Assembly (NCBI GenBank): GCA_041640655.1
Contig: JBEPZV010000038.1
Coordinates: 1 to 22,458, forward strand
DNA from: a bacterium
Lineage (GTDB): Bacteria > Acidobacteriota > Blastocatellia > HR10
Direction: 5' to 3'
Length of the DNA: 22,458 bases
In this document: positions 1-18,191 of the stretch, one piece after another
Layout: every line of letters starts with the position of its first letter
How positions within the stretch are numbered: the first letter of the stretch is position 1
Made by a program: the position numbers and the translations under genes
The notes under the pieces: generated by a model
What the model saw: the letters and a program-made list of their open reading frames with translations, nothing else
Database searches by the model: none
Told to the model about the DNA's origin: nothing

Positions 1-311
1 GTCCGCGCGCGATCGCGCGACGCATCACGTCGGCGGGGCTTGTGCTCATCGGCCCGCATTCCCCGGCGAGCGCGAGCGATTACGTGCTCGGCACGAATCA
101 CGTCTTGCCGACCGGAGGGACGGCGGCCGCCTATTCCGGCCTCTCGGTGCTCGATTTCCTGAGGCGGGCGACCTACGTCGAATGTGCGCGCCGAAGCCTC
201 CCGCGATTCGTGGGGCCGGTGCGCGCGCTCGCTCTCGCCGAGGGCTTGCCGAATCATTATCGCGCGCTGGAGGAGCGCGTGCGGGGTGATCTGCATCGAG
301 CGATGAGATGA
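1..311 (+). CDS. hisD: Histidinol dehydrogenase, C-terminal part (5' end outside window)
   Basis: Frame open from position 3 (PRAIARRITSAGLVLIG...); HisD motif SASDYVLGTNHVLPTGGTA...SGLSVLDF...LALAEGLPNH; stop overlaps hisC start (ATGA at 308-311). Confidence 0.95.
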   Translation, partial: PRAIARRITSAGLVLIGPHSPASASDYVLGTNHVLPTGGTAAAYSGLSVLDFLRRATYVECARRSLPRFVGPVRALALAEGLPNHYRALEERVRGDLHRAMR

Positions 312-1375
312 GTGCCTGGTGGCAGCGAAGACTCGACGAGTTGGAATCCCTGGAGGGGTATCCGGTCCCCGAGGTCGAGGAGCTCTCCGAAGGGAAGCTC
401 GATGCCAATGAGAACATCTTGCTGCCGAGATCGCTGCTGATGGCGTTGGCACGTCGCGCGGTGGAGGCGCTTGATCCCCGCTTCTATGCGGTCGCGGAGG
501 CGCGGGCGCTCGTGCAGGATCTCGGTCGTCATCTCGGCGTGGAGACCGAACGCATCGTCTTGGGGAGTGGAGGGGATCAGCTCATTGATCTCGTGGCGCG
601 CATGTTCCTGGATGCAGGAACGACGGCGGTCACGATCGCGCCCACGTACTCGTTCTATCGCATCCGCAGCGCGCTAACGGGAGCGCGCGTGATCGAGGTG
701 CCGCTGCGCGAGGATTTCTCTCTCGATCTCGAGGCCCTGCTTCGAGCGGCGCGGGACGCGCGCCTCCTCTTCCTCTGTTCGCCGAACAATCCGACGGGGA
801 ATCAGTTCCCCCTGGAGGAGCTCGAGCAGGTGGCGCGCGAGTTCTCGGGCATCCTCGTCGTGGACGAGGCGTACGTCGAGTTCGCGGACGCCACAGCGCT
901 GCCGCTGCTGGAGCGTTCGGCCAATGTGATTCTTCTCCGGACGTTCTCGAAAGCCTTCGGATTGGCGGGAATGCGGCTCGGTTACCTTCTGGCGCATCCG
1001 CGTCTGAGCCGCATCTTCGCCGAGAAGGTGCAATACCCTTATCCGGTGAACGCCTTCGCGGTGCGGTTGGCGCGCCTGCTCCTGGAGGCGTACGCGGAGG
1101 TGCGCGCCGCTGTTGAGATCGCCAAGCGAGAGCGGGAATGGATGCGAGCGGAGTTGTGCGCTTTGGGCGCGCGCGCCTTTCCCTCGCAGGCGAATTTCAT
1201 CCTCTTCGTGGTGGGCGATCGCGCGTCGGCCGTGTGGCGGCATTTGGCCGCGCATCGCCTGCGGGTGAAATATATCGGCGAGGTGCTCGGTCTTGGGGCC
1301 TGCCTGCGGGTGACGGTCGGCGCGCCGGAGACGAATCGCGCGGTGATCGCGCGGCTTCGGGAGGTCCTCGGATGA
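308..1375 (+). CDS. hisC: Histidinol-phosphate aminotransferase
   Basis: KLDANEN, CSPNNPTG, VVDEAYVEF, PLP-lysine motif LRTFSKAFGLAGMRLGY, LRVTVG; his operon context. Confidence 0.95.
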   Translation: MSAWWQRRLDELESLEGYPVPEVEELSEGKLDANENILLPRSLLMALARRAVEALDPRFYAVAEARALVQDLGRHLGVETERIVLGSGGDQLIDLVARMFLDAGTTAVTIAPTYSFYRIRSALTGARVIEVPLREDFSLDLEALLRAARDARLLFLCSPNNPTGNQFPLEELEQVAREFSGILVVDEAYVEFADATALPLLERSANVILLRTFSKAFGLAGMRLGYLLAHPRLSRIFAEKVQYPYPVNAFAVRLARLLLEAYAEVRAAVEIAKREREWMRAELCALGARAFPSQANFILFVVGDRASAVWRHLAAHRLRVKYIGEVLGLGACLRVTVGAPETNRAVIARLREVLG

Positions 1376-2553
1376 GCTATCGCGAGCGGCGCACGGAGGC
1401 GGGCATCGTGTACATCCGGGACGATTGGGCGTCCGGCGGATCCCGAGCGGACCTCATCCTCTTCGATTGCGATGGCGTTCTGATTGACGTGCGACCGTCG
1501 TATGACGCGGCCATTCGAGAGGCCGTCTCCTACATCGTGAGTAAGCTCGCCGGGCGTCCGGTCACGCGCCCGGTCTCGCGGCGGCTCATCTATCGGTTTC
1601 GGCACAGCGGGGGGTTCAACAACGATTGGGATACGGTGTGCGCCATCCTATGGGGGATCGCCGTCCAGTTGCCGGAGCGATGGGCAGAGGATTTCCTTCG
1701 CGCGGATGAGGATCTCGCGGGTCAGGGGCTTCGCGATGCCGCCGAGCGATTCATGGCCTACGTCAGAGGCTTGCGCCGCCCGAAGACGCTGGAGGAAGTG
1801 CTCGAGCTGCGGCATCCCTTCCCCTCGGCGCCCATGCGGCGTCGGCTTCTGGAGCTGGCCGAGCGCGCCGATAGCTCCGGCCTCCGTTCGGTCGAGCGCA
1901 CGATCCTCGAGCAGTGGGGGGTATCGGGCCTGCGGCGCGAGGCGTTTCGCGCATTCCAGAGGTTCCTCGGCTATCCGGGTGAGCCCGAACAAAGCATAGT
2001 CATTCGGGTGTTCAACGAGTTCTTCTACGGTGCCGCCTATTGTCGCGAGCGATTCGGATGGGAGCCGAGGTTCCATCTGGGACCGGGGGGCATGGAGCAA
2101 GAGCGACCGATCATCACCGAAGCCACGCTCCGGTGGCTGGAGCGGACGTTCGGGCGTGCGCGTCTGGGGATCGTCTCGGGGCGATCGCGCGAATCGGCGC
2201 GTCGGACGCTGGGGGAGCGGCTCGAGGCGTTCAATCCTGAGGCGCTCGTCTTTTTAGAGGACGAATGGAGCGGGGTTCCCGAGGGCGTGGCGATCGGCAA
2301 GCCCGAGCCGTACGGCTTGTGGCGTGCGGTTCGCGCGATGGGAGAATTCCGACGCGCGCTCTATGTCGGGGATTCCGCCGAGGACGCGCTCATGGTCGAG
2401 CGCGCGCGCGATGCGCGGTTCGAGTTCATCGGGGTCTACGGCACGGGATATGGAGCGCGTGAGAAGATCGCCTGGTTTCGTGCTCGACGCGCCGCGGCCA
2501 TTCTCCCGACGGTGAATGAGCTGCCGGAGCTGTTCGACAGACATATCGGGTGA
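1372..2553 (+). CDS. HAD-superfamily hydrolase with large cap insertion; candidate histidinol-phosphate phosphatase
   Basis: Start re-called at ATG 1372 (ATGA overlap with hisC stop). HAD motifs: I FDCDGVLID, II IVSGRS, III KPEP, IV YVGDSAED. Lies between hisC and a monofunctional hisB. Confidence 0.85.
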   Translation: MSYRERRTEAGIVYIRDDWASGGSRADLILFDCDGVLIDVRPSYDAAIREAVSYIVSKLAGRPVTRPVSRRLIYRFRHSGGFNNDWDTVCAILWGIAVQLPERWAEDFLRADEDLAGQGLRDAAERFMAYVRGLRRPKTLEEVLELRHPFPSAPMRRRLLELAERADSSGLRSVERTILEQWGVSGLRREAFRAFQRFLGYPGEPEQSIVIRVFNEFFYGAAYCRERFGWEPRFHLGPGGMEQERPIITEATLRWLERTFGRARLGIVSGRSRESARRTLGERLEAFNPEALVFLEDEWSGVPEGVAIGKPEPYGLWRAVRAMGEFRRALYVGDSAEDALMVERARDARFEFIGVYGTGYGAREKIAWFRARRAAAILPTVNELPELFDRHIG

Positions 2554-2571
2554 GGGCTGGGAGGCGGAGCT

Positions 2572-3150
2572 ATGGAGAGATGCGCTCGCGTGCAGCGCAC
2601 GACGCGCGAGACGAACATTCTGGTCGAGGTTCGCCTCGATGGGCAGGGGCGCGCCGTCGTGGAGATGCGTGTGGCGTTCCTCAAACATCTGATCGAGGTG
2701 CTCAGCCACCACAGCTTGATGGACGTGACAATCAGGGCTGAGGGAGACTTGATCCACCATCTGGTGGAGGATACGGCGCTCGCGCTCGGCGCGGCCATGA
2801 ATCAGGCGCTCGGAGAGCGGACGGGCATCATGCGTTTCGGATCGGCGCTCGTCCCCCTGGATGAGGCGCTGGCGTGGGCGAGCGTGGATCTGGCGCGTCG
2901 TCCGTTCAGCGTCACCGATCTCAAGCTCCAGCGGGAGATGATCGAGGATCTGCCGCGTGAGGACATCGCACATTTCCTGCGCTCTCTGGCGACGGCGATG
3001 GAGGCGTGCGTGCACATCGTCGTGCAGTACGGGGAGAACGATCATCACAAGATCGAGGCGGGCGTGAAGGCGCTTGCGCTCGCGCTGCGCACGGCCATGA
3101 GCCCGGATCCCCGACGATCAGGCGTGCCGAGTTCCAAGGGGGTGATCTGA
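2572..3150 (+). CDS. hisB: Imidazoleglycerol-phosphate dehydratase (monofunctional)
   Basis: RTTRETNI, HHLVED, PLDEAL, NDHHKIEA, VPSSKG; RBS GGAGG upstream. Confidence 0.96.
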   Translation: MERCARVQRTTRETNILVEVRLDGQGRAVVEMRVAFLKHLIEVLSHHSLMDVTIRAEGDLIHHLVEDTALALGAAMNQALGERTGIMRFGSALVPLDEALAWASVDLARRPFSVTDLKLQREMIEDLPREDIAHFLRSLATAMEACVHIVVQYGENDHHKIEAGVKALALALRTAMSPDPRRSGVPSSKGVI

Positions 3151-3152
3151 CC

Positions 3153-3767
3153 GTGCGCGTTCTCATCCTCGATTACGGCGTCGGGAATCTGTTCAGCCTG
3201 CGGGCGGCTTTGGAGCGCGAGGGGGTGGACCCGATCGTATCGGCCGACCTGCCCTCGACCGAGGACGTGGCGGCCCTCATCCTCCCCGGGGTGGGACACT
3301 TCACGCCGGTGGCCGATCGGCTCCGAGGACTTCGAGAGCGCTTGCAACGGATGATCGAAAGGGGGACGCCGATTCTCGGCATTTGTCTGGGGATGCAGGT
3401 GCTCTTTGAGGAGAGCGAGGAAGGCGCGGGGCAGGGCCTCGGTTTCTTCAGCGGGCGGGTCGTGCGCTTGCCGGACTCGGTGAAGGTTCCCCATATCGGG
3501 TGGAACGCGCTGCGCCTGCGGCAGCGCCATCGCGTGCTCGAGGGGATCGAGGACGGGGCGTGGGTGTACTTCGTGCATTCGTATCATCCGCAGCCGATGG
3601 ATCCGGGGATCGTCCTCGCGGAGGCAGAATACGGTCGGCCGTTTCCGGCGATCGTGGCGCGCGGCGCGCTCTTTGGGACGCAGTTTCACCCGGAGAAATC
3701 GGGATCGGTCGGACGGCGCGTGTTGCGCAACTTCCTGGCTCTGGTGAGAGAGCGATGGACATCTTAG
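3153..3767 (+). CDS. hisH: Imidazole glycerol phosphate synthase, glutamine amidotransferase subunit
   Basis: Start re-called at GTG 3153; DYGVGNL, LPGVGHF, LGICLGMQ, VPHIGWN, YFVHSY, QFHPEKSG. Confidence 0.96.
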   Translation: MRVLILDYGVGNLFSLRAALEREGVDPIVSADLPSTEDVAALILPGVGHFTPVADRLRGLRERLQRMIERGTPILGICLGMQVLFEESEEGAGQGLGFFSGRVVRLPDSVKVPHIGWNALRLRQRHRVLEGIEDGAWVYFVHSYHPQPMDPGIVLAEAEYGRPFPAIVARGALFGTQFHPEKSGSVGRRVLRNFLALVRERWTS

Positions 3768-4522
3768 CGGCCGTGGATCTCTTCACGGGGAAAGTCGTGC
3801 GCTTGACGCGCGGGCAGATCGCCACGGCGAAGGTCTACAGCACCGATCCGATGGCCGTGGCCCGGCAGTGGCAAGATCAAGGGGCCGACGCGCTGCATCT
3901 GGTGGATCTGGATGCGGCCTTGGGCGTGGGGTCCAATTTCCCCACGATCCTCCGCCTCGTGAAGGAAGCGACGATTCCTGTTCAACTCGGAGGGGGGATT
4001 CGCAGCGAGCGCGCGGCGCGAGAGTGGTTGGAGCGGGGCGTCGCGCGCATCGTCCTGGGGACGCTGGCCCTGCGAGATCCCTCTTGCATCGAGCGATTGG
4101 TCGAGGCGTTCGGGCCGGAGCGGATCGTCGTCGCGCTCGATTTCTCGCAGAAGAGCGTCGTGATGGAAGGATGGACGCAACCGACTGCGCTCACGGTCGA
4201 GGAGGCGTTCACGCGATTTCGGGACCTCGGTGTCCGGCAATTCCTGGTGACGGCCGTCGAGCGCGATGGAACCTTGAGTGGCCCGGACGTCCGCATCTAC
4301 GCGCATCTGTGTGCCACCACGGGCGTCCGCGTCTTCGCCAGCGGGGGCATCAGCACTGTGGCCGATGTCCTCGAGCTGGAGCGCGCGGGTGTCTCTGGCG
4401 TGGTGATCGGCAAGGCGCTCTATGAGGGGCGGATGACGCTCGCCGAGATTCGTCGGGCGCTCATCGAGGCGAGCCGGGGCGATGCTTTGACGTCAGATGC
4501 CGCTCCCTTCTCGACACAGTGA
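3755..4522 (+). CDS. hisA: ProFAR isomerase
   Basis: Start re-called at ATG 3755; AVDLFTGKVVRL, LHLVDLDAA, QLGGGIRS, RDGTLSGPD, ASGGIS, GKALYEG. Confidence 0.95.
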   Translation: MDILAAVDLFTGKVVRLTRGQIATAKVYSTDPMAVARQWQDQGADALHLVDLDAALGVGSNFPTILRLVKEATIPVQLGGGIRSERAAREWLERGVARIVLGTLALRDPSCIERLVEAFGPERIVVALDFSQKSVVMEGWTQPTALTVEEAFTRFRDLGVRQFLVTAVERDGTLSGPDVRIYAHLCATTGVRVFASGGISTVADVLELERAGVSGVVIGKALYEGRMTLAEIRRALIEASRGDALTSDAAPFSTQ

Positions 4523-4534
4523 GGGGGGGTACGC

Positions 4535-5305
4535 ATGGGACTGACCAAGCGGATCATCCCGTGCTTGGATGTCGATCAAGGACGGGTTCGAAAAGGAACC
4601 CACTTTCTCTCCCTGCGCGATGCCGGGGATCCGGTGGCGCTCGCCGCTCGCTACCGAGATGAGGGCGCCGATGAATTGGTCTTCCTGGACATCACGGCAT
4701 CGGTCGAAGGGCGGCGGACCGTGCGCAGTTGGGTGGAGCGCGTGGCGCGCACGCTCGATATCCCCTTCACCGTCGGCGGGGGGATTCGCACCGTGGAGGA
4801 AGCGCGCGCCATTCTCTGCAGCGGTGCGGATAAGATCTCCGTGAACACGGCGGCGGTGGAGCGTCCCGAGCTCATTCGCGAGTTGAGCGAGATGTTCGGA
4901 CGGCAATGCGTCGTCGTCGCCATTGACGCGCGGCGACGCGCGGATGGCGAGCGCCTCTGGTTCGAGGTCTATTCGCATGGAGGAAGACGGCCGACGGGAC
5001 GCGATGCGATCGCCTGGGCGCAGGAGGCGGAAGCGCTCGGGGCTGGGGAGATCCTGCTGACCTCCATTGACCGAGATGGGACCGAAGCCGGGTACGATCT
5101 GGACCTGACACGCGCCGTCGCCGAGCGCGTGCGCATCCCCGTGATCGCCAGCGGCGGATGCGGACGTCCCGAGCATATTCTCGACGTCCTGACCCTCGGC
5201 GGGGCCGACGCCGCGCTCGCGGCCTCCATCTTCCACTATGACAAGTATCCCCTTCCACAAGTGAAGCGGTTCCTCCGCGAGCGGGGGATCGAGGTGAGGT
5301 TATGA
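4535..5305 (+). CDS. hisF: Imidazole glycerol phosphate synthase, cyclase subunit
   Basis: [58 protein letters not shown]. Confidence 0.97.
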
Positions 5306-5661
5306 GTGGAGTCGCGCTCGAGGAGCTGGATTTTCGGAGATCCGGCGGGCTCGTGCCCGTCGTTGTGCAAGACGCCGTGACGCGCGAGGTGCTCATGGTG
5401 GCTTTCGCCAACCGCGAGGCCATCCTCGAGACGCTGCGCACCGGGTACGCGCATTACTTCAGTCGTTCTCGCGGCCAACTGTGGAAGAAGGGGGAGACCT
5501 CCGGCCACGTCCAACGCGTCCGCGAGATCCTCGTGGATTGCGATCGGGATACGGTGCTCTACCTTGTGGAGCAAGAGGGCGTGGCGTGTCATCGGGGAAC
5601 GCGCTCCTGTTTCACCGAACCGCTCATTGGTGACGCTCCGCGCGACGCCACTCCTCCTTGA
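5302..5661 (+). CDS. hisI: Phosphoribosyl-AMP cyclohydrolase (stand-alone, no HisE fusion)
   Basis: [44 protein letters not shown] overlap with hisF stop. Confidence 0.96.
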
Positions 5662-5686
5662 CACCCGACCGGTGGCGAGGCACAAT
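5658..5686 (+). promoter_or_regulatory. sigma70-type promoter for the tRNA gene
   Basis: TTGACA (5658-5663), 17-nt spacer, CACAAT (5681-5686), 13 nt upstream of tRNA base 1. Confidence 0.8.
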
Positions 5687-5699
5687 CATCCCCAGGTGT

Positions 5700-5772
5700 G
5701 GGCCCTTAGCTCAACCGGCAGAGCAGCGGACTCATAATCCGTCGGTTCCAGGTTCGAGTCCTGGAGGGCCCA
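5700..5772 (+). tRNA. tRNA with CAT anticodon, most likely tRNA-Ile2 (lysidine-modified); CCA not encoded
   Basis: Acceptor stem GGGCCCT/AGGGCCC, D arm TAGCTCAA..GGCAGAGC, anticodon arm GCGGA-CTCATAA-TCCGT (CAT 5733-5735), T arm CCAGG-TTCGAGT-CCTGG, discriminator A. Paired G1-C72 excludes initiator Met; C4/C5 acceptor pairs are Ile2-like. Confidence 0.93.
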
Positions 5773-5805
5773 GGCGCTTTCGCTTCAGCTCCGATCTGGC
5801 GCGCG

Positions 5806-6546
5806 TCATTTCGGGGAAGACGGTCCCGAGGCGGCGGGCGACCGATACGGGGGGTACAGAATGATCTCGGCCGTGCGTCGGGCTTCGTCGAGCCAGGCGA
5901 TCATCTCCGACTTCACCTTCTCATTGCGGAGGATCTGCTCGATGAGCGAGCGGACCTGTTCGAGCGGGGGAGGTGCTGTCCCGCGACGTCGCGCCTCCGG
6001 GACCACGCGATTCTCGTAGTACCATTGAACTTCCGGCTCGCTCACGAAGACGAAGGCGCGGAATCGGAAGTCAATGAAACGCAGGACCTCCACCCGATGG
6101 CGCGCGATCGCGCGCAGCGTCGTCTCATCCAGCCCGGCGGCCGTCAGGCGCCGCGCGAACGCGCGCTCGGACGGGAAGCGCGCGCGCAGCTCGGTCAGAT
6201 ACCGCTCGATCTCCTCCTCGGTGATGGCGATGCTCGGCAGTTTCTCGGCCTCTTGATGCAGGAGCATCTGATCGATGAGCTGCTGAAGCGCGCGGGATTT
6301 CACCTCTTCGGCATATTCACCTTCGGGCGTCTCCGGGTCCAGGGCGAGAGACCAGCGAATGTCGCTCTCGGTGATCACCCGACCGTTGACGACGGCAGCG
6401 ATGCGATCCAGCAGGATCGCTTGGGCGAAGACGGACGACACGAGGGCGCCCATGCCCACCCACACGATGTATCGGAGGGCGGACCCGATCCATCCCGTGC
6501 TTCCATAGGATGGGGCATGCGGACCGAAACGACGTGAGCCTCTCAT
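5806..6546 (-). CDS. SurA N-terminal-domain periplasmic chaperone-like protein lacking a parvulin domain
   Basis: Hydrophobic signal-like segment ending VFA-QA, then LLDRIAAVVNGRVITESDI, LQQLIDQMLLHQEAEKL, VSEPEVQWYY, WLDEARRTAEI; directly downstream of the Omp85 gene. Start codon uncertain. Confidence 0.8.
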   Translation of the reverse strand: MRGSRRFGPHAPSYGSTGWIGSALRYIVWVGMGALVSSVFAQAILLDRIAAVVNGRVITESDIRWSLALDPETPEGEYAEEVKSRALQQLIDQMLLHQEAEKLPSIAITEEEIERYLTELRARFPSERAFARRLTAAGLDETTLRAIARHRVEVLRFIDFRFRAFVFVSEPEVQWYYENRVVPEARRRGTAPPPLEQVRSLIEQILRNEKVKSEMIAWLDEARRTAEIILYPPYRSPAASGPSSPK

Positions 6547-6557
6547 CGCCTGCCGCT

Positions 6558-9392
6558 TCAGAAGGGATTCCCGAACGTGATGTGGAGCTGCGTGCGCGGG
6601 ACGCCCGCGACGCGCTTGACCAGGGCCCCGAAGTCGAGGCGAAGGGGGCCAAGCGGCGTCCTGATGCGAAGCCCGAAGCCGAGCGTATGCGTGAGATCGC
6701 GCGGGCGGATGTCGGAGATGCGCGCGAAGACGTTACCACCATCGTAGAAGATCGCGCCGCCCAGGCGCAGACGGCGGAGCAGCGGAAAGCGAAGCTCCGC
6801 GTTCGCGATGAGCAGGGCATTTCCCCCGAGAGGACGCGTCCGACCCGGGCGATGGGGATCGGCCGCGCGTGGCCCCGCCTGCTCGAATCCGAAGCCGCGG
6901 AGCGTCGTCGAGCCACCGGCGAAGAACCGTTCGCTGATGGGGATCGTCGCCGAGCGTCCATAGGGGTGCGCCAGTCCCAGGCGCACGTTCGAGGCGAAGA
7001 TGACATCCGTTCCCGGGACGATCCGATACATGCGTTGATGTTCGCCGAAGAAGCGGATGAAGTTCTCACTCCCGCCCAGGAAGCGAGAGATGAAGGAGAG
7101 ATCGAGCGTCGTGAACGTCCCGTGCGTGGGGTCGAAGGGGTTGTCGCGCGCATCGCGCACGAAAGAGGCGGAGAGCCGACCGAGCTGCACGGTGGTGTCC
7201 TCCCGGCGCAGCTCCTCGGGCTCGGTCACGTTGGAGATGATCACGTTGCTGAACGTGTAGCGGAAGAGCAGGGAGCTTCTGGGCCCAAGAGGTCGCTCCA
7301 CCTGAGCGAGCACGGTGAGGCGACTGGCGTCGAACGCGACCTCCTCCTGCCGTTGGAAGAGGAGGGAGGCGAGCCCGGAGAGTTCCGTGCCGAAGAGCTT
7401 CGGATCGGTGAACGAAAGCTGTCCGGTCTGTTCGCGACGGCTCGCGCGAAGGCGAAAGGCTGCTGTGCGCAGCTGGCCGAGGAAGTTCGCGTTCGAGAGT
7501 TCGACGAGTCCGCGCGGCCCATCGTCGGTGCGAAAGCCGAAGCCATACGTCAATTGAGAGCGCGGCGCCTCATCCACCTCGACGCGCACGTCCCGAACGG
7601 TCTCCGACTCGGGATTGGCCTCGACGGGCTCGGCAGTGATGGAGACGCGGCGAAAGGCGCCGGTGCCGTAGAGCCGTTCCTCACTGCGCGCGAGCTCGGC
7701 GGGACGCAGGACGTCCCCCTCACGAAAGCTCAGGTATCGCGCGATCGCCCGATCGCGGGTGAGCCGGTTCCCGCGAATGCGGATGGTGCCGATCCGAAAC
7801 TGCTTTCCCTCCTGAATGCGGAACGTCACGGTGACGCGATGCGCCTCATCCTCTTGGACGAGGGGGGTGATCGTCGCCTCGACATAACCGCGATCGGCAT
7901 ACAGCTCGGCCAGTCGCGAGACGGCTTCCCGCACGTGCGCTTCGACGAAGGGAGTGCCTGGCTGCAGTCCGCTGGCGCGCACGAGGTCCTCCGGGGGAAG
8001 CGCGCGCGCGCCCTCCATATGTACTCGGGAGAGCATCAACCGCGGCCCTTCTTCGACGACGTAGATGATGATGAGGTCATCCTTCTTCAGGCCGATGGCC
8101 AGGCGCGCAGCGACCACGCGAGCGTGCGCATATCCTCGCTCGCGCAAGGCCTCGACGATCGCGCGTTGATCGCGTTGCATGAGCTGGCGGCTGGTGAGGC
8201 CGCGCCCCCATCTCCCACCGAGGAGCGACCCCAGGCGCGGTCGGATCTGTTCGAGCGTGAGCGCGGAGGTCCCCTCCAGGCGAATCGCTCGAAGGGCGTA
8301 TCGCCGACCGCGCTCGACCGTATAGCGGAGGTGGACGCGGCCGTTCTCTTCCGTGCGCGTCACTTTCGCTTCGGCGAAGAAATATCCTTGGCGCTGGACG
8401 TGATCGAGCACATTCAACCGTCCCTCTTCCACCGTCGCGTCATCGAGCCCACCCTGGCGGAGGATCGGCAAAAGTTGCCGTCGCTCCTCCATCGAGAGAG
8501 AGACGCCTTCGACTTCGACATCAACCAAAGGGCCGGACTCGACCGCGATCTCCACGATCACGGCGTTCTCCTCCTCAGCGCGCTCCAGGCGCGGCGGCGC
8601 GATGCGCGGCGCCAAGTATCCGTGCCGAAGATGCAGCTCGCGAATACGCTGCAAATCCCCCTGCAGGCGCAGGGCATCGAAGGGCGCGCCCGGCTTGCTC
8701 TCCAGGCGAGCGAGCAGCTCCTTTCGGTCCAGCTTCACATCGCCGGTGAGGCGCACCTCGGCTAAGCGCGCAGGGGGGCCGGGGACGACGCGGAACAGCA
8801 GATGTGCCGTCCGTCCATCGTCCGTGAGCGTCACCTGTGGCGTGACCTCGCACGCGAAGAAGCCGAGGCCGTGATAGAATTCGACGATCTCATCAGCCGC
8901 GCGGGCGAGCACGGCTTCGGTGAAGCGCGCGCCCGGCGTCAGGGCGCCGAGGCGCAGTGAGAGGCGCGATTGCGTTTCGGGATCCACGCCTTGAAAGCTC
9001 ACGCGCCCGATGCGCGGCTGTGGGGTGAGGCGAAACCTCAGGCGAACGCCCGTCGGTGCCTCCTCCGCTTCGACGAGGACATTCGAGGCCAACGCCGATT
9101 CGTAAAGCGCGAGGATCGCGCGCCGCACATCCGCGAGGCGAAGCGGATCGCCCACTCGCAATGGGATCGCCCGCGCGAATTCATCCTGAGGATCAACGAT
9201 GGGTTTCTCGTTCACGAGGATCTCGATGTGGGCGATGGGCTTCCCGTGTACCGAGGCGAATGTCAGGCGTTCGCCTTGAGCGCGAAGGCCGCCGGGCCAC
9301 AGCAGCGCGAGCGTGAAGCCGAGAAGGAGTGAGCGCGCGCGAAGCGGCCGGAGATACGCCCTGCCTATCCCATCAGCGGCCGATCGCTTCAT
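6558..9392 (-). CDS. Omp85-family (TamA/BamA-like) outer-membrane insertase with multiple POTRA domains
   Basis: Signal peptide; repeated POTRA signatures (GFFACEV, GYLAPRI, GYFFAEA, GYAHARV, GYVEATI, GNRLTRD); barrel motif ERFFAGGSTTLRGF, TPLGPLRLDFG, terminal Phe. ATG 9392 (RBS-like AAGGTGG) preferred over GTG 9401. Confidence 0.9.
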   Translation of the reverse strand: MKRSAADGIGRAYLRPLRARSLLLGFTLALLWPGGLRAQGERLTFASVHGKPIAHIEILVNEKPIVDPQDEFARAIPLRVGDPLRLADVRRAILALYESALASNVLVEAEEAPTGVRLRFRLTPQPRIGRVSFQGVDPETQSRLSLRLGALTPGARFTEAVLARAADEIVEFYHGLGFFACEVTPQVTLTDDGRTAHLLFRVVPGPPARLAEVRLTGDVKLDRKELLARLESKPGAPFDALRLQGDLQRIRELHLRHGYLAPRIAPPRLERAEEENAVIVEIAVESGPLVDVEVEGVSLSMEERRQLLPILRQGGLDDATVEEGRLNVLDHVQRQGYFFAEAKVTRTEENGRVHLRYTVERGRRYALRAIRLEGTSALTLEQIRPRLGSLLGGRWGRGLTSRQLMQRDQRAIVEALRERGYAHARVVAARLAIGLKKDDLIIIYVVEEGPRLMLSRVHMEGARALPPEDLVRASGLQPGTPFVEAHVREAVSRLAELYADRGYVEATITPLVQEDEAHRVTVTFRIQEGKQFRIGTIRIRGNRLTRDRAIARYLSFREGDVLRPAELARSEERLYGTGAFRRVSITAEPVEANPESETVRDVRVEVDEAPRSQLTYGFGFRTDDGPRGLVELSNANFLGQLRTAAFRLRASRREQTGQLSFTDPKLFGTELSGLASLLFQRQEEVAFDASRLTVLAQVERPLGPRSSLLFRYTFSNVIISNVTEPEELRREDTTVQLGRLSASFVRDARDNPFDPTHGTFTTLDLSFISRFLGGSENFIRFFGEHQRMYRIVPGTDVIFASNVRLGLAHPYGRSATIPISERFFAGGSTTLRGFGFEQAGPRAADPHRPGRTRPLGGNALLIANAELRFPLLRRLRLGGAIFYDGGNVFARISDIRPRDLTHTLGFGLRIRTPLGPLRLDFGALVKRVAGVPRTQLHITFGNPF

Positions 9393-9407
9393 GAGACCCA
9401 CCTTTGC

Positions 9408-12400
9408 TCAGAAGCGCTTGCGGATTCGCAGATCGAAGCTGAAGTTCCCATCCTGATCGCGCGCCCCCACCAGCGAGAACCGATCGCTCAGGCGATATTC
9501 GACGATGATGACCTGCTCTTGCGGACCGGAGAGATTCGTCGCGTAGAGGATGGAGAGATTGCGGTTGATCTGCCGCCCGACGGTGAGCCGCGCCGTGGGA
9601 TCCGAGCCTCGGCCGACGATCAGCGGATCAATTTGAAAGCGGTTGATGCCGAAGACCTTCCCCGTGAACTCCTCGGCGCGATGCGTCAGCTCCCCGATGA
9701 GCAAATTGGCCGCCGTCCCCAATCCGGTTTGGGGCGTCGTCAACGCCGCGCGCTGCGAGATCTCGCCCGTCGCGATCAGCGCGAGGATCTGCTCCGGAGG
9801 CAGGGCCGGCTCGGAGCGAAGCGTCGTTTGGAACCGATCGAGCGTGCCCGTGAATCCGACGATCACACGATATCCGGCGATGTCGCTCTCCGCCTCGAGG
9901 TGAATGCGCGGCTCGCTCTGAGCCGCCTCCTCGCGGGGGAGATCAAGGCGCCCTCGCGTGATCTGATACTCGCGGTTGCGAAAGCGCACGACGCCGCGGG
10001 TGACGATGAGATTGCCGGAGAGGCGAGGGGCGGCGAGGGTCCCCCCGATGTGGAGCGAGGCGCTGCCCACGGCATCGGCGAGGTTGTTGCGAACGATGAG
10101 CGTGTCGAGCGCATTCACGCGAATGTCGAGCGAGATCGGCGGATGAATGGAGATTTCCGGGAGCGAGGGACGCGGTCGCTCTCCCGCCTGAGCGAAGATG
10201 AGTTGAGCCAAATCCACGTCCTGTGTGTATTCCGAACGACGCACGGTGAGCGTGCCCGAGAGGACCTGCACCTGACGGTTCCCCTGTAACGTGAGCATCC
10301 CATCCACAATGGAACGAAGTCCCGGGGGGTACGTGAGGACGACGGCGTCGCTACGAATCAGGATCCGCCACTGGTCGGCGCGAAGACGGCGCAGCAGGAG
10401 GCCGCCGCTGATGGTCACGTCGCCCTCATTGGCCCGAGCTCGCAAATGCTCGATCAATGCTTGCGAGGCGGTGAAACGAATGCGCCCTTGTCCATGCGCG
10501 AGGGCGATCGGCCAATCGAGCACGCGGAGTGAGAGGTCCTCGATCTCCATGAGGCCGCTCAAACGCGGCTCCTCGAAATATCCGCGCAGAGAGGCGCGAA
10601 TCGTCGCGCGTCCTGCCGCGAAGAGGCCGGGATACAGACCGCGCAACAGACGCAGATCCACCGACCCGTTCACATTCAGGTCATGTCCGCTGCCAAAGCG
10701 CTCGCCGAGGGATTCGCTCAAGTCCACCGTACCGCTCAGGTCGAGACTCGTGTTCTCGCCGACCAGCGCGGCGGATTCGATCGTGAGCATCCGACCATGC
10801 AGACGCAGCGTGAACGGCCGGCGCGCGTGAAGCGCGTACTCGCTGAACGCCAGGCGGAGGTTCGAGATGGCGAGCGTCGCGCGCACGCCTGTGGCGACAT
10901 CCTCGCGACGTCGGGGGGCTGTCGGGTCGAGACGCGCGCCGATCGGCCATTCGAGCTGCAACTCCCCGCTCATCGTGCCGCTCCACTCCGAGAGCCGGCG
11001 GATGAGACGAAGATATGGAGTCAGCGAGAGGTCTTCAAAGCGCGCGCGCACGCGCACCGTGGGCGCAGGATCCGTGAGGTCGAGCGTGCCGAGCAGCGCG
11101 TGCGTCTGCCCAAAGAGCGCAGCCGTGATGGGGATCAGAAGGCGGCCTTCGTTCGTCCTCAACTCGGCCGCGATCTCTCCGGCTGGACGCCCGCCGATCG
11201 AGAGTCGAGAGATGCGTATCTCGCCAAAGAGACGAGGGTCTGAGAGTGTGCCCTGACCCGAGAGCGAGAGCGAGAGACGCCCCCGCACGTTCATCGTTCG
11301 CCACATCGCCGCGCGCAGTAGGGAATCCAGCTCGATGTCCTCCGCGCGCATTCGAAGCGCATACGTGTCCTCATCGGTTCGGAAAAATCCGGACAGCGCG
11401 ATCGTCCCGAACGGAAGATCGAGTCGAGCGTCTTGGACCTCATACCGAGGAGGGTCGAGGTGAAAAGTCCCCGCGAGGCGACGAAAGCGCGCCGGCCGCT
11501 CAAGCAAGAGAACCTCGCCCTCCTCCAGCGCGATCCGCGCCGTCCCCGTCGGTGCCTTGGGGAGACCGGAGAGCGCGACCTCGCCTGAGAGCATCCCCGA
11601 GAAGGGCAGCTCAAGACCGAGAGCTTTCGACCATCGGTCGAGATTCACGCGATGCAATCGGCCGCGCAGGGCGAGGCCATTCTCCTGACCCGAGAGCGCC
11701 GTCAGGCGAACTTCGGCGCGCGCGCCCGTCTCCCAGAGGACATGAGCGTCCTCGATCTCCCATCGCCCGTGCGCGTAGGCGAAGCGCGCCCGTAGCAAGC
11801 GAGCCGGTTCCCCGGCCACGAGGAGCCCCCTCAGCTCGCCCTCTCCGGAGATCGCGTGCATTCCATCCCGCGTGATGAGACGAAGGCGGTAATCGGCCGT
11901 CCCGGTGAGCTGCGAGATGAAGTCGTGCGTCAGCGTCCGCAGCCGATAGCCGTAAGCTTCGAGCAGCCGCTGTTGTTCGGACAGGTCGTCCGAGCGCACG
12001 TCGAAAGCCAAATCGAGATCCCCACGCCAGCTCACACTTCCGGAGAGCATCACCTTCGAGCGTCCGATGGTGAGCGAAGACGCCGTCACAGACAGTCCGC
12101 GCGGGGACAGGGTCGCGTCCAATGTGCCCCGTACCGGAAGCGCCTCCGCCATCGGGACGGAGCGTGGCGTGATCCTCAGCGCGAGGACACCGGAAGCTCG
12201 CGTGACGGTCAGTCCCGGCCATCGCGCGGTGAGAGAGCCCTGGGCCGCCCCTTCAAGAGGCAGGGGACGGTGAAGGAAGCGCGTCGCCATGTCGCGCACG
12301 TCCACATCCTCGAACCGCAGGTGAGCCTCTGAGAGCGGCTCGTGGCGGTTCTCCTCTCGGGATCCCCAGGCGAAGCGAACGCGCGCATATCCGCGCACGC

Positions 12401-13697
12401 GCCCCCCGAGCGCGCGCAGGTCGAGGTCTTCGATGAACGCGTGTTCCGGCTCCACGCGCAGGCGCGCGCGAATCCCCTCAAGCGGAAGCGGACCGAGAAG
12501 CGCCGCGCGCCCGCCGATCATCCCGTCGAACACAAGATCAGGAGAAGCAGGCAACGTTCCCGTCACCGCGATCCCACGCGCGCGAAAGAAGGCAGCCGCC
12601 AGCGCCTCCGCCGTCATTCGAAACGCGAAGCGCGTGCCGGAGGAATCCCGCGCGGGTATAGCCTCCGGCGTGCGGATGTTCCAGGACGCGTTCGTCACCC
12701 GAATCCCCCACATCGTAGCGCGCGCTGCCGTCGCCGTCGCCTCGAGCTGATAGACGCGCCCCCGGCCGCGCACCCGCCCGCGCAGAGCCACATCTCCCGA
12801 GAAGGCAAATGGAGACGGTCCGTTCGCCACCACACGATCCAAGTGCACGAGCGCCGTCAACACGAGGTCATACTGCGGCTCCGTCCATCCCCGGATCGTC
12901 CCGGTCAGAAGTGCCTCGCCGACATCGCTCGTCACCCGAGCGCGTTCCAGTCGCACCTGATCGTCCGTGATCGCGGCGCGCCATTCCAGTCGCGCTCGCG
13001 CGATCACCCGCTCGTCCCACGTGAGATCGAGCCGCTCGATCTCCCCCAGCGCGCGCGGCTCCGAAGGCGTTGGCACGAGCGAGAAGGTCACTCCATCGGC
13101 CTCAAGGTGGAACCGATAATTCTGAGCGTTCGCGAGGATGCGCCCATCGGTGATCGTCACGCGCTCCACGCGGAGCGTATAGGGCCTCGGCTCCTTCGGG
13201 CGGCGAAGAGCCGACCAGTCTATGTCGGCGAAGTTAGGACGCCCACTTGCATCCACGGTGATGAGGATCTGCGGACGGTCAAGGCGGAGATCGGCGATGG
13301 AGAACGCGCGGGCGAGGAGGTCCTCGATGCCGAAGCGCGCGCTCAGATGCAGGACGCGAAGCAGTGGATCAGCATGCGAACCCGGGAAGAGGCGCAGGTC
13401 GGTGAACTCCACCGTCCCTCTCCAGAGCGAAACGTTCGCATCTTGGAATTCGACTCGAACGTGGAGCGGTCCCAGCCGAGCATTGAGCGTCCGTTCGAGG
13501 AATCGGTCGAAATGCTCACTCCTCGCCCAGAGGGCGAGACCGAGGATGATCGCGAGCGCCATCCCACAGGCAAGAGCAGCGATGACGGCAATCCGTGAGC
13601 GTCTCATGTGCGATGACCCGGTGGAATCTCCGAACTCCTTTTTAGAAGCGACCTTCGGAGAGCCGCGTTGCTCGTCTCTCACATCAGCTTTCGCCAC
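9408..13697 (-). CDS. tamB: Translocation and assembly module TamB (AsmA-like, DUF490 C-terminus)
   Basis: N-terminal TM anchor, long amphipathic beta-repeat body, C-terminal LRSEPALPPEQILALI...ARLTVGRQI...VEYRLS...FDLRIRKRF; adjacent to the Omp85 gene. Start GTG 13697 or ATG 13607. Confidence 0.88.
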   Translation of the reverse strand: MAKADVRDEQRGSPKVASKKEFGDSTGSSHMRRSRIAVIAALACGMALAIILGLALWARSEHFDRFLERTLNARLGPLHVRVEFQDANVSLWRGTVEFTDLRLFPGSHADPLLRVLHLSARFGIEDLLARAFSIADLRLDRPQILITVDASGRPNFADIDWSALRRPKEPRPYTLRVERVTITDGRILANAQNYRFHLEADGVTFSLVPTPSEPRALGEIERLDLTWDERVIARARLEWRAAITDDQVRLERARVTSDVGEALLTGTIRGWTEPQYDLVLTALVHLDRVVANGPSPFAFSGDVALRGRVRGRGRVYQLEATATAARATMWGIRVTNASWNIRTPEAIPARDSSGTRFAFRMTAEALAAAFFRARGIAVTGTLPASPDLVFDGMIGGRAALLGPLPLEGIRARLRVEPEHAFIEDLDLRALGGRVRGYARVRFAWGSREENRHEPLSEAHLRFEDVDVRDMATRFLHRPLPLEGAAQGSLTARWPGLTVTRASGVLALRITPRSVPMAEALPVRGTLDATLSPRGLSVTASSLTIGRSKVMLSGSVSWRGDLDLAFDVRSDDLSEQQRLLEAYGYRLRTLTHDFISQLTGTADYRLRLITRDGMHAISGEGELRGLLVAGEPARLLRARFAYAHGRWEIEDAHVLWETGARAEVRLTALSGQENGLALRGRLHRVNLDRWSKALGLELPFSGMLSGEVALSGLPKAPTGTARIALEEGEVLLLERPARFRRLAGTFHLDPPRYEVQDARLDLPFGTIALSGFFRTDEDTYALRMRAEDIELDSLLRAAMWRTMNVRGRLSLSLSGQGTLSDPRLFGEIRISRLSIGGRPAGEIAAELRTNEGRLLIPITAALFGQTHALLGTLDLTDPAPTVRVRARFEDLSLTPYLRLIRRLSEWSGTMSGELQLEWPIGARLDPTAPRRREDVATGVRATLAISNLRLAFSEYALHARRPFTLRLHGRMLTIESAALVGENTSLDLSGTVDLSESLGERFGSGHDLNVNGSVDLRLLRGLYPGLFAAGRATIRASLRGYFEEPRLSGLMEIEDLSLRVLDWPIALAHGQGRIRFTASQALIEHLRARANEGDVTISGGLLLRRLRADQWRILIRSDAVVLTYPPGLRSIVDGMLTLQGNRQVQVLSGTLTVRRSEYTQDVDLAQLIFAQAGERPRPSLPEISIHPPISLDIRVNALDTLIVRNNLADAVGSASLHIGGTLAAPRLSGNLIVTRGVVRFRNREYQITRGRLDLPREEAAQSEPRIHLEAESDIAGYRVIVGFTGTLDRFQTTLRSEPALPPEQILALIATGEISQRAALTTPQTGLGTAANLLIGELTHRAEEFTGKVFGINRFQIDPLIVGRGSDPTARLTVGRQINRNLSILYATNLSGPQEQVIIVEYRLSDRFSLVGARDQDGNFSFDLRIRKRF

Positions 13698-13735: not shown

Positions 13736-13780
13736 TCCGGAAGGGGCTCGCTCACGCGCGCGTCCTCCTCCCCTTCCGGA
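13736..13780. repeat. 11-bp perfect inverted repeat spanning the ribBA stop codon
   Basis: TCCGGAAGGGG (13736-13746) and CCCCTTCCGGA (13770-13780), 23-nt loop; no following U-tract. Confidence 0.6.
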
Positions 13781-14987
13781 AAGAGCTGACATCGGCACTG
13801 GAGTCCGAGAGCGGGACCGTCTCGACGATCTCCAAGCCGAATCCTGAGAGCGCGGCGAGCTTCTTCGGATGGTTCGTGAGCAGCCTCATGCGTCGGACCC
13901 CGAGATCATAGAGGATTTGCGCCCCGATCCCGTAATCCCGCATGTCCCAGGAGAGGCTCCCAGGCACCCGACCGCTCTCCGACTCCGGCACCACGCGAGT
14001 CGTCTCGGTCATCTGCGGGGCATCGCCCGCGTGATGGCGCAGTAGCGAAGCCAGGAGCTGTTCGCTCAAATGTTCTCGCCGGATGAGATAGAGCAAAACG
14101 CCGCGCCCCTCTCGGGCGATCAGCTCGAACGCGCGATGCAATTCGGCTCCTGCTTCCTCCTCTCGGCATCGGAAGACATCGCCGAGGATCGAGAGCGTAT
14201 GGACGCGGACCAGAATCGGCTTGTCCGGGGCAATCACTCCCTTCACCAGGGCCAGATGAATTTCCCCATTGATGGGATTCTCGTACGCCGAGACGCGAAA
14301 CTCGCCATAAGGGGTCGTGAGCGACGCTTCCGCCCGCTTCCGCACCACGCGCTCGTGCTGCAAGCGATAACGGATGAGGTCGGCCACAGTGACGATCTTC
14401 AACCCGAAGCGGCGAGCGAACGTGATAAGTTGCGGCAACCGCGCCATCGTCCCATCGCCGTTCATGATCTCGCAGATGACGCCCGCCGGCGTCAATCCCG
14501 CCAGTCGGGCCAGATCAACAGAGGCTTCCGTCTGCCCGGCGCGCACAAGAACCCCACCCTCGCGCGCGCGCAGGGGGAAGATGTGTCCCGGACGCACCAA
14601 GTCCGAAGGCCGCGTGCGCGGATCAATGGCCGTCCGAATCGTGCGCGCGCGATCGGCGGCGGAGATGCCCGTGGTGATCCCCTCGCGCGCGTCAATCGAG
14701 ACGCAGAAGGCCGTCTCGAACCGAGAGGTATTCTCCGGCGCTTGAAGCGGCAGGTTCAGCTCTTCACACCGCTCGGGCGTGAGCGAGAGGCAGATGAGCC
14801 CGCGCCCGTACTTGGCCATGAAGTTGATGATCTCCGGCGTCACCTTCTCCGCCGCGCAGCAGAGATCACCTTCGTTCTCCCGATCCTCGTCATCCACGAG
14901 GATGACCATGCGCCCTTGCCGGATCTCCTCGATGGCCTCCGGGATGGAGGCGAAGGGCGGCCCCTCGCGTCGTCGGCGTGCCCTCAT
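13752..14987 (-). CDS. ribBA: 3,4-dihydroxy-2-butanone-4-phosphate synthase fused to a degenerate GTP cyclohydrolase II-like domain (RibBX type)
   Basis: Start re-called at ATG 14987 (ATGA overlap with ribE stop). RibB motifs [33 protein letters not shown] intact; RibA-like half has LVRVH and [14 protein letters not shown] but lacks the three-cysteine Zn motif. Confidence 0.92.
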
Positions 14988-15643
14988 CCCCCACGCTCCT
15001 GATCCGTGAAGTGTTCGAACGCCACGTTGGACGCCTTCGATCGGACGTGCGCCAGAAGCGGCTCCATCATGCGCTCGACGTACTTGGCCAGCACATCCAC
15101 TTCCAGGTTGACGCCATCGCCAGGGCGCAGCTCCCGAAGATTCGTCATCCGAAACGTATGAGGGATAATGGCGACCTCGAACCACGCATCGCTCAATCCG
15201 GCGATCGTCAGGCTGATCCCGTCCACGGCGATCGAGCCCTTCGGGACGAGATACCGACGCAGCTCCGAGGGGAAGGCGAAGCGGAAGATCCAGGAATCCC
15301 CCTCCGGGCGGCGTTCGAGGAAGCGGCCGACGCCGTCCACATGACCCTGCACAATGTGCCCGCCGAGCCGATCCCCAGGCCTGAGCGCGCGCTCGAGATT
15401 CACCGCGCGCCCCGCGCGGAGCCGACCGAACGTCGTCCGACGAAGCGTCTCCGCCGAGAGCTGCGTGCGAAAGCCATCGCGCTCAACCCCAGTCACCGTC
15501 ACACAGACGCCGTTGACGGCGATGCTCGCGCCCACCCGCAAATCCTCCAGGACCGCGCGCGCTTCCACGCGCACCTCCCCCCCAGCACTCGTGAGCGCGA
15601 GCTGACGAATCCGCCCGACCTCCTCGATCAACCCCGTGAACAT
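14984..15643 (-). CDS. ribE: Riboflavin synthase alpha chain
   Basis: N-terminal MFTGLIEE signature, [47 protein letters not shown] (ribC in E. coli nomenclature). Confidence 0.97.
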
Positions 15644-15687: not shown

Positions 15688-15891
15688 GGCATCGGCCGGG
15701 AGCAGAAATCCTTCGCGCGGCATGGGGCCCCGCTGCTGCTCACGAAGGCGTTGATCCTCACGCCCTCTCGGATCTCCGTGACGGAGATCACGATCGCGCA
15801 TGACCGCGATCATTGATCCGACGTCGCGACCGGGATTCAATGCCCACCGGGACGCCGAAAGGTGTCCGAAACACACACGGGGAGGAAACTT

Positions 15892-17002
15892 GTGCGCAGG
15901 CAATGACTTTCGATGCAGCGAAGAGGGTCTGATCTCCAAACGCAGCGAGGGAGATGGGGGATCCTCACGACAGCGCTCATTGTAGGGGGGCTTGTTGTTG
16001 ACTTCGTCTCCTTTCTCGCGGGCATCGGTCGGAGGGTGTATCTCATCGGCTTCGCCTGGGTACCCGTCCGATCACCTGCGCGCGCACATCTTCTCTGAGG
16101 CGCAGACGATCTATATCCCACTCGCCTATGAATGGGGATCCGCTCGAGCCGAACAACAACAGTTCCCACACGATGCTCGTGACCCCGATCTTTTCCACAA
16201 TGGAAGGGAAGGCACGCCCATTCCCGGGCGCAGGGTGACGCTCGCTCCTGCGGAAGTGCGATACATGGCGTTAGCCGACTTGCTCGAGGAGGCCTCTCAG
16301 GGCCACAATATGAGCGGTCTGGCGCTTCACTACTCCGGTCGGATGTTAGAAGCGGGCGCGCAGATCATCCTGAAACTCGGCGAGGTCGGAAGCGTGGATG
16401 TTCCTTTCACCAGCCGTAGTGATTACCGCTCGACGGTTCAGGAAGCTGTGTGGTGGATGCCCTGCCGCGCGCAAGCGATCATAGTGCTCGGAAATGCGTC
16501 CGAAGCGCCTATTCGCGTGCGGGTGCAGGATACCGAAGGTGAGGAGGGGGTTCGCCTCAATCCCTATACTTCGCGGATCCTCCATCGTTCGGGACATTGC
16601 CCCCCACGTCCGCGGCAGGCGCAGTCGGGGCCCTTCGGCTCGAGACAACGGGTCCGGTGGGGAGCTTGCGTGCTTGGGGCGTCATCACCTCCAAAGAGGA
16701 TCTTTTCGCAAGTCCGATTCGATTCTACGACCTGGGAGGGATTCGTCAGCCGCACCTTTTCGCCATGGGCCTTCGGGTGAAGGAAGCGACCCCTCACCTT
16801 GTAATGAAGAATACGACGGGCGTGCCGATCTCCGCCCGACTGCGATTCCTTCCCCTCTCGCCTGCGGTGGATGACGTGCTGGAGGGGATGCCGGTCATCA
16901 TCGGGCCGCATGAAGTACGGGAGATGGATCTCACACCCTTCTCCAGGAAACTGCGACAAGATCACATCTTGACGTCGTCAGCGTCCACGTCATCAATGAG
17001 AG
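15892..17002 (+). pseudogene. Degraded gene for a secreted beta-rich protein of unknown function, 3'-truncated at the IS remnant
   Basis: RBS GGAGG (15881-15885) and GTG 15892, in-frame TGA at 15904; signal peptide split at G6 run (15985-15990); protein-like sequence continues across ORFs 15913, 15992 and 16597 with further shifts near 16140-16212, the C6 run 16600-16605 and ~16938. Confidence 0.7.
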
Positions 17003-18189: not shown

Positions 18190-18191
18190 GG

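Follow-up and report, generated by a model that had tools for sequence, protein, structure and literature searches.

A histidine operon of probable archaeal origin in a hot-spring lineage of Blastocatellia

How does a diderm bacterium come to carry a histidine operon that reads, gene after gene, like that of an archaeon? The question is raised by contig JBEPZV010000038.1 of assembly GCA_041640655.1 (Acidobacteriota; Blastocatellia; HR10), whose 22,458 nucleotides are the stretch analyzed here and are called the window. The window is an entire contig of a 3.13 Mb assembly in 128 contigs (completeness 89.8%, G+C content 0.637), and in a run-level sequence search the runs that carry its stretch 4300-7300 were hot-spring metagenomes. 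Its first 5661 nucleotides harbor hisD-hisC-HAD-hisB-hisH-hisA-hisF-hisI, where HAD is a hisN-like gene of the haloacid dehalogenase family. A first-pass annotation of the contig had recognized this order next to bacterial genes and proposed a whole-operon transfer from archaea to bacteria, old enough to have been ameliorated to the host base composition. Trees, topology tests and database neighbors support the transfer, and the composition of the genes agrees with amelioration. We consider it very probable that the ancestor of one hot-spring order of Blastocatellia took up the operon en bloc from an archaeon of the TACK group (Thaumarchaeota, Aigarchaeota, Crenarchaeota and Korarchaeota), and that the native histidine genes were displaced.

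Gene order and sequence identity

Open reading frames and family matches agree on the gene order. The details quoted as resembling archaeal proteins are all found in the translations, namely ITSAGLVLIG..SASDY in HisD, W..LDE..GY..PE..KLDANEN in HisC, GDLIHHLVED, DLARRPF, EDIAHFL and CVHIVVQYGENDHHK in HisB, GNLFSL in HisH and DF..SGGL in HisI. The hisB gene has no fused phosphatase, and hisI has no HisE part and keeps the canonical motifs of phosphoribosyl-AMP cyclohydrolase (PRA-CH) in the alignment, so that the window has the order, the stand-alone HisB and the stand-alone HisI of a TACK-type his operon. Four gene pairs overlap (the hisD stop with the hisC start as ATGA, and the hisA start with the hisH end by 13 bases), and GGAGG-like sites precede most starts. 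As the contig begins inside hisD, hisG is not in the window, and it had no match in this assembly, which is 89.8% complete and cut inside that gene. In sister genomes a long-form hisG lies upstream of hisD.

The archaeal arrangement that the first-pass annotation had cited is real. A scan based on a HAD alignment (one genome per species, seeded on two HAD motifs) returned at least 80 loci and is no census; among the matches listed, 69 are archaeal and 11 bacterial, including one from the genus of the host. The archaeal ones belong to Bathyarchaeia, Nitrososphaeria/Thaumarchaeota and Caldarchaeales, and the neighbors of their HAD genes form hisD-hisC-HAD-hisB-hisH-hisA-hisF-hisI, the same order as in the window. 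The run from hisC through HAD, hisB, hisH, hisA and hisF to hisI was found in order in 10 of the 16 Bathyarchaeia loci and in 26 of the 43 from Nitrososphaeria/Thaumarchaeota, and most loci without it end at contig ends.

All window proteins are closer to Bathyarchaeia than to other Acidobacteriota, with median identities of 54% versus 46% for HisB, 41% versus 34% for HisC, 45% versus 35% for HisA, 66% versus 56% for HisF and 55% versus 48% for HisI. The hisD fragment (102 aa), judged by identity only, shares 46-57% of its residues with Bathyarchaeia and 38-39% with Acidobacteriota of the same class. The hisG product of a sister genome (G001) reaches 65-72% with Bathyarchaeia and Caldarchaeales, versus 26-37% with every bacterium sampled. 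HisB identity peaks at 60% in Thermoproteota, where 162 of 201 genomes had a match; the maxima are 47% in Chloroflexota (41 of 61, a tally that includes one unpublished genome, G567) and 46% in Armatimonadota (40 of 41). Among 301 Acidobacteriota genomes (189 with a match; the unpublished G087 is included), only the host genome and G008, a member of the same order, exceed 53%.

Searches with HisB, HAD and HisF against 5.8 billion proteins gave a similar picture. When matches bearing an organism name and lying outside the host lineage were counted in the best 120 of each search, 6 of 6 were archaeal for HisB, 10 of 11 for HAD and 23 of 23 for HisF (22 from TACK archaea and one from Methanocellales). 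The eleventh HAD protein, labeled "Acidobacteria bacterium" (P0155), was considered as a sign of an independent bacterial lineage and dismissed, since it groups with sequences from the second family of the host order.

Phylogeny and topology tests

Proteins were taken by tblastn from 153 loci, with matches covering at least 60% of the query kept; the 43 Nitrososphaeria loci were thinned to 16 (10 for HisC), and locus L025 was omitted as a duplicate of L015. Single-gene trees were inferred by quick maximum likelihood under LG+C20 with posterior mean site frequencies, with support from the Shimodaira-Hasegawa-like approximate likelihood ratio test (SH-aLRT). All seven nest the clade of the host order among Nitrososphaeria and Bathyarchaeia, with enclosing supports of 86 to 100. 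For HisB, the order lies in an otherwise archaeal set of 51 rows (96) and then groups with Nitrososphaeria (93). The enclosing supports are 86 and 93 for HisF, 91 for HisI, and 87, 87 and 92 for HisH, where one very long Chloroflexota row intrudes. In the HisA tree (92), two families of the order are interleaved with Nitrososphaeria. The HAD tree separates the archaeal sequences and the host clade, with full support (100), from a bacterial branch of Atribacterota, Armatimonadota and Chloroflexota, and in the HisC tree the host clade (99) is sister to Nitrososphaeria plus Caldarchaeales (92), followed by Bathyarchaeia (95).

A concatenate of six genes (1357 columns) was run at 65 and at 34 rows. 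The larger tree has a clade of 32 rows (100) made up of the host order and only Bathyarchaeia and Nitrososphaeria, and places Acidobacteriota of the same class and beyond in a bacterial clade (99) with Chloroflexota, Armatimonadota, Atribacterota and Escherichia coli. In the smaller set, which we chose ourselves and searched carefully (bootstrap/SH-aLRT), the archaea and the host clade group at 100/100, the host clade joins Nitrososphaeria and Caldarchaeales at 99/99, and Bathyarchaeia are supported at 100/98; the bacterial clade, including Acidobacteriota of the same class, is again recovered (99/99). The approximately unbiased (AU) test rejects a host clade held with nine bacteria (log-likelihood difference 208, p 9e-53). 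It also rejects monophyly of 13 archaea without the host clade (difference 31, p 0.006), a group that was defined post hoc, after inspection of the tree. These results refine the donor side: they favor Nitrososphaeria sensu lato, with Caldarchaeales counted in, over Bathyarchaeia.

The his genes have a G+C content of 0.64-0.66 and, at third codon positions (GC3), of 0.74-0.81, which resembles the flanking genes (GC3 0.73-0.83) and bears out the proposed amelioration. The archaeal his regions have median G+C contents of 0.47 (Bathyarchaeia) and 0.35 (Nitrososphaeria). As the genes of the host are GC-rich and the archaeal ones mostly AT-rich, compositional attraction would pull the host clade toward Acidobacteriota.

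Distribution in the host order and the native hisIE

The operon with its HAD gene is kept in all genomes of the same genus and family that were examined (L013-L017), with identities of 72-89% within the genus and 49-78% to G007. In a second family of the order (G008, G010 and G011), the His proteins are of the same types and HisB is 67-68% identical to that of the window, the cluster is loosened, and the HAD gene lies outside the operon, elsewhere in the genome (L179/L180, L178 and L177). In other orders of the class HisB is only 40-45% identical, and the His proteins are of bacterial type.

Some further features were observed in the second family. The HAD of G008 matches in two pieces of one open frame (residues 3-127 and 154-391) and may carry an insertion. 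In the same genome, hisD and hisC of the acquired operon are separated by genes for an N6/N4 DNA methylase and a restriction enzyme of BanI type (L018, 5092-8097). G010 has a Uma2-family endonuclease gene before hisB and a HEPN/nucleotidyltransferase pair after hisI. The HisA proteins of the two families share only 46-49% identity and do not group as sisters in their tree, which could be explained by rapid evolution or by a second replacement.

Each his gene of the window is single-copy in the assembly, and no second set was found there except for a fused hisIE of bacterial type on another contig (C41, 3828-4580, minus strand; L011, with relatives L166-L174). The best full-length matches of its product are HisIE proteins of other Blastocatellia (44.7% over 217 aa; 53% to G012). 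Its HisI half lacks SRSR, LWxKGxTSG and ACH, which are otherwise invariant (present in 11 of 11 HisI sequences from bacteria and archaea used for comparison). In an alignment of ten HisIE sequences, nine from the order plus G012 as outgroup, WSRSR..LWxKGxTSGN is lost from the HisI half in all nine genomes of the order and ACH in eight (G004 keeps it); DCDxD and the second Cys are also lost in G007, G008, G010 and G011. The HisE half, a phosphoribosyl-ATP pyrophosphohydrolase (PRA-PH), is conserved (PF01503, 52.6 bits in the C41 protein), and the HisIE of the outgroup is canonical. Of the features of a bifunctional HisIE, namely the PRA-CH motifs SRSR, LWxKGxTSG, DCDxD, ACH and SCF together with a PRA-PH half, the C41 protein therefore has an incomplete set. 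The lost motifs presumably bind metals and substrate, and the gene resembles a working gene in which one domain has become a pseudogene. Since the imported operon has no hisE, the host would have kept its native hisIE for the pyrophosphohydrolase half, and the HisI half probably decayed because the archaeal hisI had made it redundant.

The predicted HAD phosphatase

PMC10804674 describes Nmar_1556 (nmHisN), encoded between hisC and hisB of Nitrosopumilus maritimus, as a specific histidinol-phosphate phosphatase with reported kinetics, and gives its fingerprint as Y24, D25, K/R56 and D/E64 with accessory I28 and I52. According to the same paper, 154 sequences, from Thaumarchaeota and Bathyarchaeota, make up its main cluster, and the gene between hisC and hisB was first noted by Fondi et al. 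(2009).

The HAD gene of the window also lies between hisC and hisB. Its core motifs, D32-C-D34, S269 (IVSGR), K310 (GKPEP) and D334/D338 (GDSAED), show no variation in 6 of 6 sequences from the host family and align with the archaeal homologues. The fingerprint corresponds to Y44, D45, R77 and D85 with I48 and I73 in an alignment to Nitrosopumilus sp. homologues, through which the numbering was transferred, N. maritimus itself not being among the loci. With core motifs and fingerprint kept, the protein is most likely the histidinol-phosphate phosphatase (HolPase) of the pathway, as judged from its sequence. The best NCBIfam match is TIGR01548 (HAD-SF-IA-hyp1) at 61.5 bits, below the cut-off of 140.2 and so outside that family; a PDB sequence search gave a single generic "Hydrolase" (6iah_A, E 2.7e-14), which is uninformative; and sources name the HAD "phosphoglycolate phosphatase-like" or "hypothetical".

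A separate bacterial branch of nmHisN-like HADs adjoins hisD, hisC or hisB in Atribacteria (L090), Anaerolineae/Amarolinea (L101-L103) and Armatimonadota (L095, L096 and L164), and at locus L100. In these proteins Y-R replaces Y-D in the fingerprint, while K and D are kept. They are candidates for missing histidinol-phosphate phosphatases in Atribacterota, Chloroflexota and Armatimonadota. An HAD of a Krumholzibacteriaceae genome (L079, positions 2327-3418) nests among Bathyarchaeia HADs in two trees; no his genes were detected on its contig of 4131 bases. This suggests either another archaea-to-bacteria transfer or a mis-binned contig.

Origin of the operon and alternative explanations

In the history that we favor, hisG-hisD-hisC-hisN(HAD)-hisB-hisH-hisA-hisF-hisI would have entered as one block from a donor on the side of Nitrososphaeria sensu lato (Caldarchaeales included), and would have replaced the native histidine genes by xenologous displacement, probably once. 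The imported operon would then have become fully adapted to the base composition and ribosome-binding sites of its host, and would now be the sole set for the 8 of 10 enzymatic steps encoded in the window, as well as for hisG in the sister genomes. The HAD would supply the histidinol-phosphate phosphatase step, like the archaeal nmHisN, and the native fused hisIE would have been retained for HisE while its redundant cyclohydrolase half decayed, leaving the two steps shared between an archaeal HisI and a native HisE. To a wider version we give even chances: a fixed archaeal-bacterial chimera pathway of nine archaeal-derived genes and one native domain (HisE), whose HisI partner would be a still-translated domain-level pseudogene, accompanied by several entries of nmHisN-type HADs into bacteria with or without the operon, which may provide the "missing" HolPase in several bacterial phyla with a gap at this step, namely Krumholzibacteriota and, through a separate and older bacterial branch in their his operons, Chloroflexota, Atribacterota and Armatimonadota.

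Several points speak against this history or blur it. The exact archaeal sister of the host clade is weakly supported in the 34-row tree (44/44 and 36/34), the archaeal group behind the second AU test was fixed after the tree had been seen, and many rows of the 65-row concatenate violate the single composition assumed by the model. The bacterial rows comprise 25 Acidobacteriota loci from outside the order together with Chloroflexota, Armatimonadota, a single Atribacterota and E. coli, and Euryarchaeota, Firmicutes and Actinobacteria are among the groups left out of the trees. In the trees for HisA and HAD, the order's two families fall apart instead of grouping together, which could reflect later replacements or poor resolution. 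The organism labels were taken from the titles of metagenome-bin records, only about a quarter of the database matches carry an organism name at all, and an unnamed sequence (P0057) is the nearest outgroup of the host clade in the HisB tree (92). Finally, hisG is missing from the assembly itself, and we infer its presence in this genome from the sister genomes.

The unnamed matches matter most for an indirect route, in which another bacterial lineage already holding a TACK-type operon passed it on, or some third group gave it to both archaea and the host. Most of the best 120 matches in each search are nameless, the sister position of P0057 would suit such an intermediary, and the Krumholzibacteriaceae HAD nested among Bathyarchaeia indicates that pieces of the system have reached further bacteria too. 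Yet every named near neighbor is archaeal but for one HAD that clusters with the order itself, the unnamed matches fall among labeled archaea in the HisB tree, and the operon type spans two archaeal classes while occurring only in the host order among the 301 Acidobacteriota genomes; we regard this route as improbable. A still smaller probability goes to the reverse direction, an operon type that arose in bacteria related to the order and was acquired from them by the ancestors of Nitrososphaeria and Bathyarchaeia. The tree is unrooted, hisGDC-BHAFI is also the classic enterobacterial order, and the his operons of Chloroflexota, Atribacterota and Armatimonadota contain distant HAD relatives, all of which would fit. 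The host clade is, however, nested within archaeal diversity (99/99; AU p 0.006 for the post hoc group), the archaeal distribution is far broader than one bacterial order, and a decaying native hisIE of acidobacterial type is what one would look for in a recipient and not in a donor.

Direct uptake from the archaeal side also has to be set against readings that involve no transfer, to which we assign almost no weight. Vertical inheritance combined with faster or convergent evolution, or an artefact of long-branch or compositional attraction, could draw on the shortness of the His proteins, on the compositional violations and on some other Acidobacteriota that reach 51-53% HisB identity. The one with the highest outside identity (G044, 53%) falls in the bacterial clade, and a native acidobacterial operon inherited vertically was rejected with the placement of the same-class rows there and with the AU result against a bacterial position. 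Seven concordant genes, an extra HAD gene at the same position as in archaea, the hisG of the sister genome and a compositional pull in the opposite direction argue likewise. An archaeal fragment fused to a bacterial contig during assembly or binning is just as hard to credit, although the assembly is fragmented, of metagenome type, and the Logan contigs of three of the four best runs end inside 5716-5745. Stretch 4300-7300 was found whole or partly in 20 runs of 14 studies, of which the four best may be sources. In one of these (X1), a single contig of 6310 bases covers 4300-6155 with zero differences. In the other three (X2-X4), the contigs end within a tRNA gene and a second contig of 540 bases shares 30 bases, which points to a graph branch at a repeat and to no break in the genome. 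SurA-like, BamA and TamB genes follow hisI in 4 of 4 loci of the genus (L013-L016; 65-83% identical, on contigs of 41-551 kb), G+C content and GC3 match the host, and the operon is 75-89% identical within the genus and not identical to any archaeon. Synteny, composition and the bridging contig thus exclude a chimeric contig. For the interval 5661-5806, where the first-pass annotation had asked for continuity, continuity was established, with the correction that the interval contains a tRNA-Met(CAT) gene. The tRNA gene was considered as the original integration site and rejected, since it follows hisI within the genus only (4 of 4 loci) and is absent from the loci of three other genera of the order (G007, G008 and G010); in G007, hisI is followed by a NamZ/beta-lactamase-fold peptidoglycan enzyme.

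Gene map of the window

The features of the window are collected in Table 1. The bacterial neighbors named by the first-pass annotation (TamB, Omp85, rpsU and riboflavin synthase) all have family matches, and the SurA-like, BamA/Omp85 and TamB genes serve outer-membrane biogenesis in a diderm host. Beyond rpsU, the window carries a tandem universal-stress protein and an AcrB-type pump. A scan of 5400-6000 found no terminator.

Table 1. Features of the window and the evidence for them (aa, amino acids)
Feature	Position	Strand	Remarks
hisD 3' part, histidinol dehydrogenase	3-311	+	last 102 codons; TIGR00069 and PF00815, profile positions 303-393 of 393
hisC, histidinol-phosphate aminotransferase, 355 aa	308-1375	+	TIGR01141, 282.9 bits (cut-off 276.55)
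hisN-like HAD phosphatase (putative), 393 aa	1372-2553	+	PF00702; TIGR01548, 61.5 bits (below cut-off 140.2)
hisB, imidazoleglycerol-phosphate dehydratase (IGPD) only, 192 aa	2572-3150	+	PF00475, 161 bits
hisH, glutamine amidotransferase subunit, 204 aa	3153-3767	+	GTG start; TIGR01855, 220 bits
hisA, ProFAR isomerase, 255 aa	3755-4522	+	TIGR00007, 250.9 bits
hisF, cyclase subunit, 256 aa	4535-5305	+	TIGR00735, 375.9 bits
hisI, stand-alone PRA-CH, 119 aa	5302-5661	+	NF000768, 153 bits; PF01502
sigma-70-like site TTGACA-17-CACAAT	5658-5686	+	just upstream of tRNA-Met(CAT)
tRNA-Met(CAT) gene	5699-5773	+	between hisI and the SurA-like gene
SurA-like chaperone	5806-6546	-	family match
Omp85/BamA	6558-9401	-	family match
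TamB	9408-13697	-	family match
RibBA	13752-15185	-	family match
riboflavin synthase	14984-15643	-	family match
rpsU	17959-18189	+	family match

The region 15700-18500 has a lower G+C content (0.58-0.61 versus 0.65), and its only family matches are rpsU and a weak IS5-transposase fragment (16931-17392, minus strand, E 5e-5). Long open reading frames at 15992-16780, 16597-17619 and 18503-20386 have no Pfam match and may not be genes.

Significance

The replacement of a whole essential biosynthetic operon from archaea to bacteria is seldom documented in such detail. Here gene order, seven concordant trees, topology tests, amelioration and a decaying remnant combine to indicate the direction and relative age of an event that would lie at the root of one hot-spring order of Blastocatellia. 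The lineage offers a natural test case for the expression and integration of an archaeal operon in a bacterium, and for which native parts stay when the import lacks hisE. It also bears on annotation. The C41 gene would be called a bifunctional HisIE though its cyclohydrolase half looks dead, and an HAD that databases name "phosphoglycolate phosphatase-like" or "hypothetical" is most likely a histidinol-phosphate phosphatase. This step is reported as missing in 42 of 208 prototroph genomes by GapMind 2026 (PMC13759103).

Comparison with known systems

The closest counterpart is the nmHisN-type his operon of Thaumarchaeota/Nitrososphaeria and Bathyarchaeota, which has the gene order, HAD family and fingerprint of the window, as well as a stand-alone HisI and an unfused HisB, and in whose clade the window proteins nest. 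The differences lie in the host, a diderm bacterium, and in a G+C content of 64-66% versus archaeal medians of 35-47%. The HAD of the window is only 26-39% identical to archaeal HADs, and its cap insert is longer than that of Nitrosopumilus.

The operon of E. coli K-12 (NC_000913.3), hisG-D-C-(N)B-H-A-F-(I)E, has the shared genes in the same relative order, and in both operons the phosphatase function directly precedes the dehydratase and neighboring genes overlap. In E. coli the phosphatase is the N-terminal domain of HisB and HisI is fused to HisE, whereas in the window both are separate and hisE lies outside the operon. The phosphatase domain of E. coli HisB belongs to another HAD subfamily. 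The E. coli His proteins are 30-49% identical to those of the window and fall in the bacterial clade.

Transfer of his genes over large taxonomic distances has precedents. PMC10804674 summarizes Fondi et al. (2009) as showing that the his genes of Thermococcales were obtained from bacteria, and the review PMC10138114 covers transfers of single his genes or whole operons between groups. The Thermococcales case shares with the window a transfer across a large distance followed by fixation; it differs in direction, which is here from archaea to bacteria, with the native set displaced and a decayed hisIE left behind. In the literature searched, which included main-text passages of PMC10804674, PMC13759103 and PMC10138114, we found no report of this transfer into Acidobacteria, and the word "Acidobacteria" is absent from the main texts of PMC10804674 and PMC10138114. 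As the transfer of his genes is well known in general, this old displacement of a bacterial operon by an archaeal one is a clear new case of a known process.

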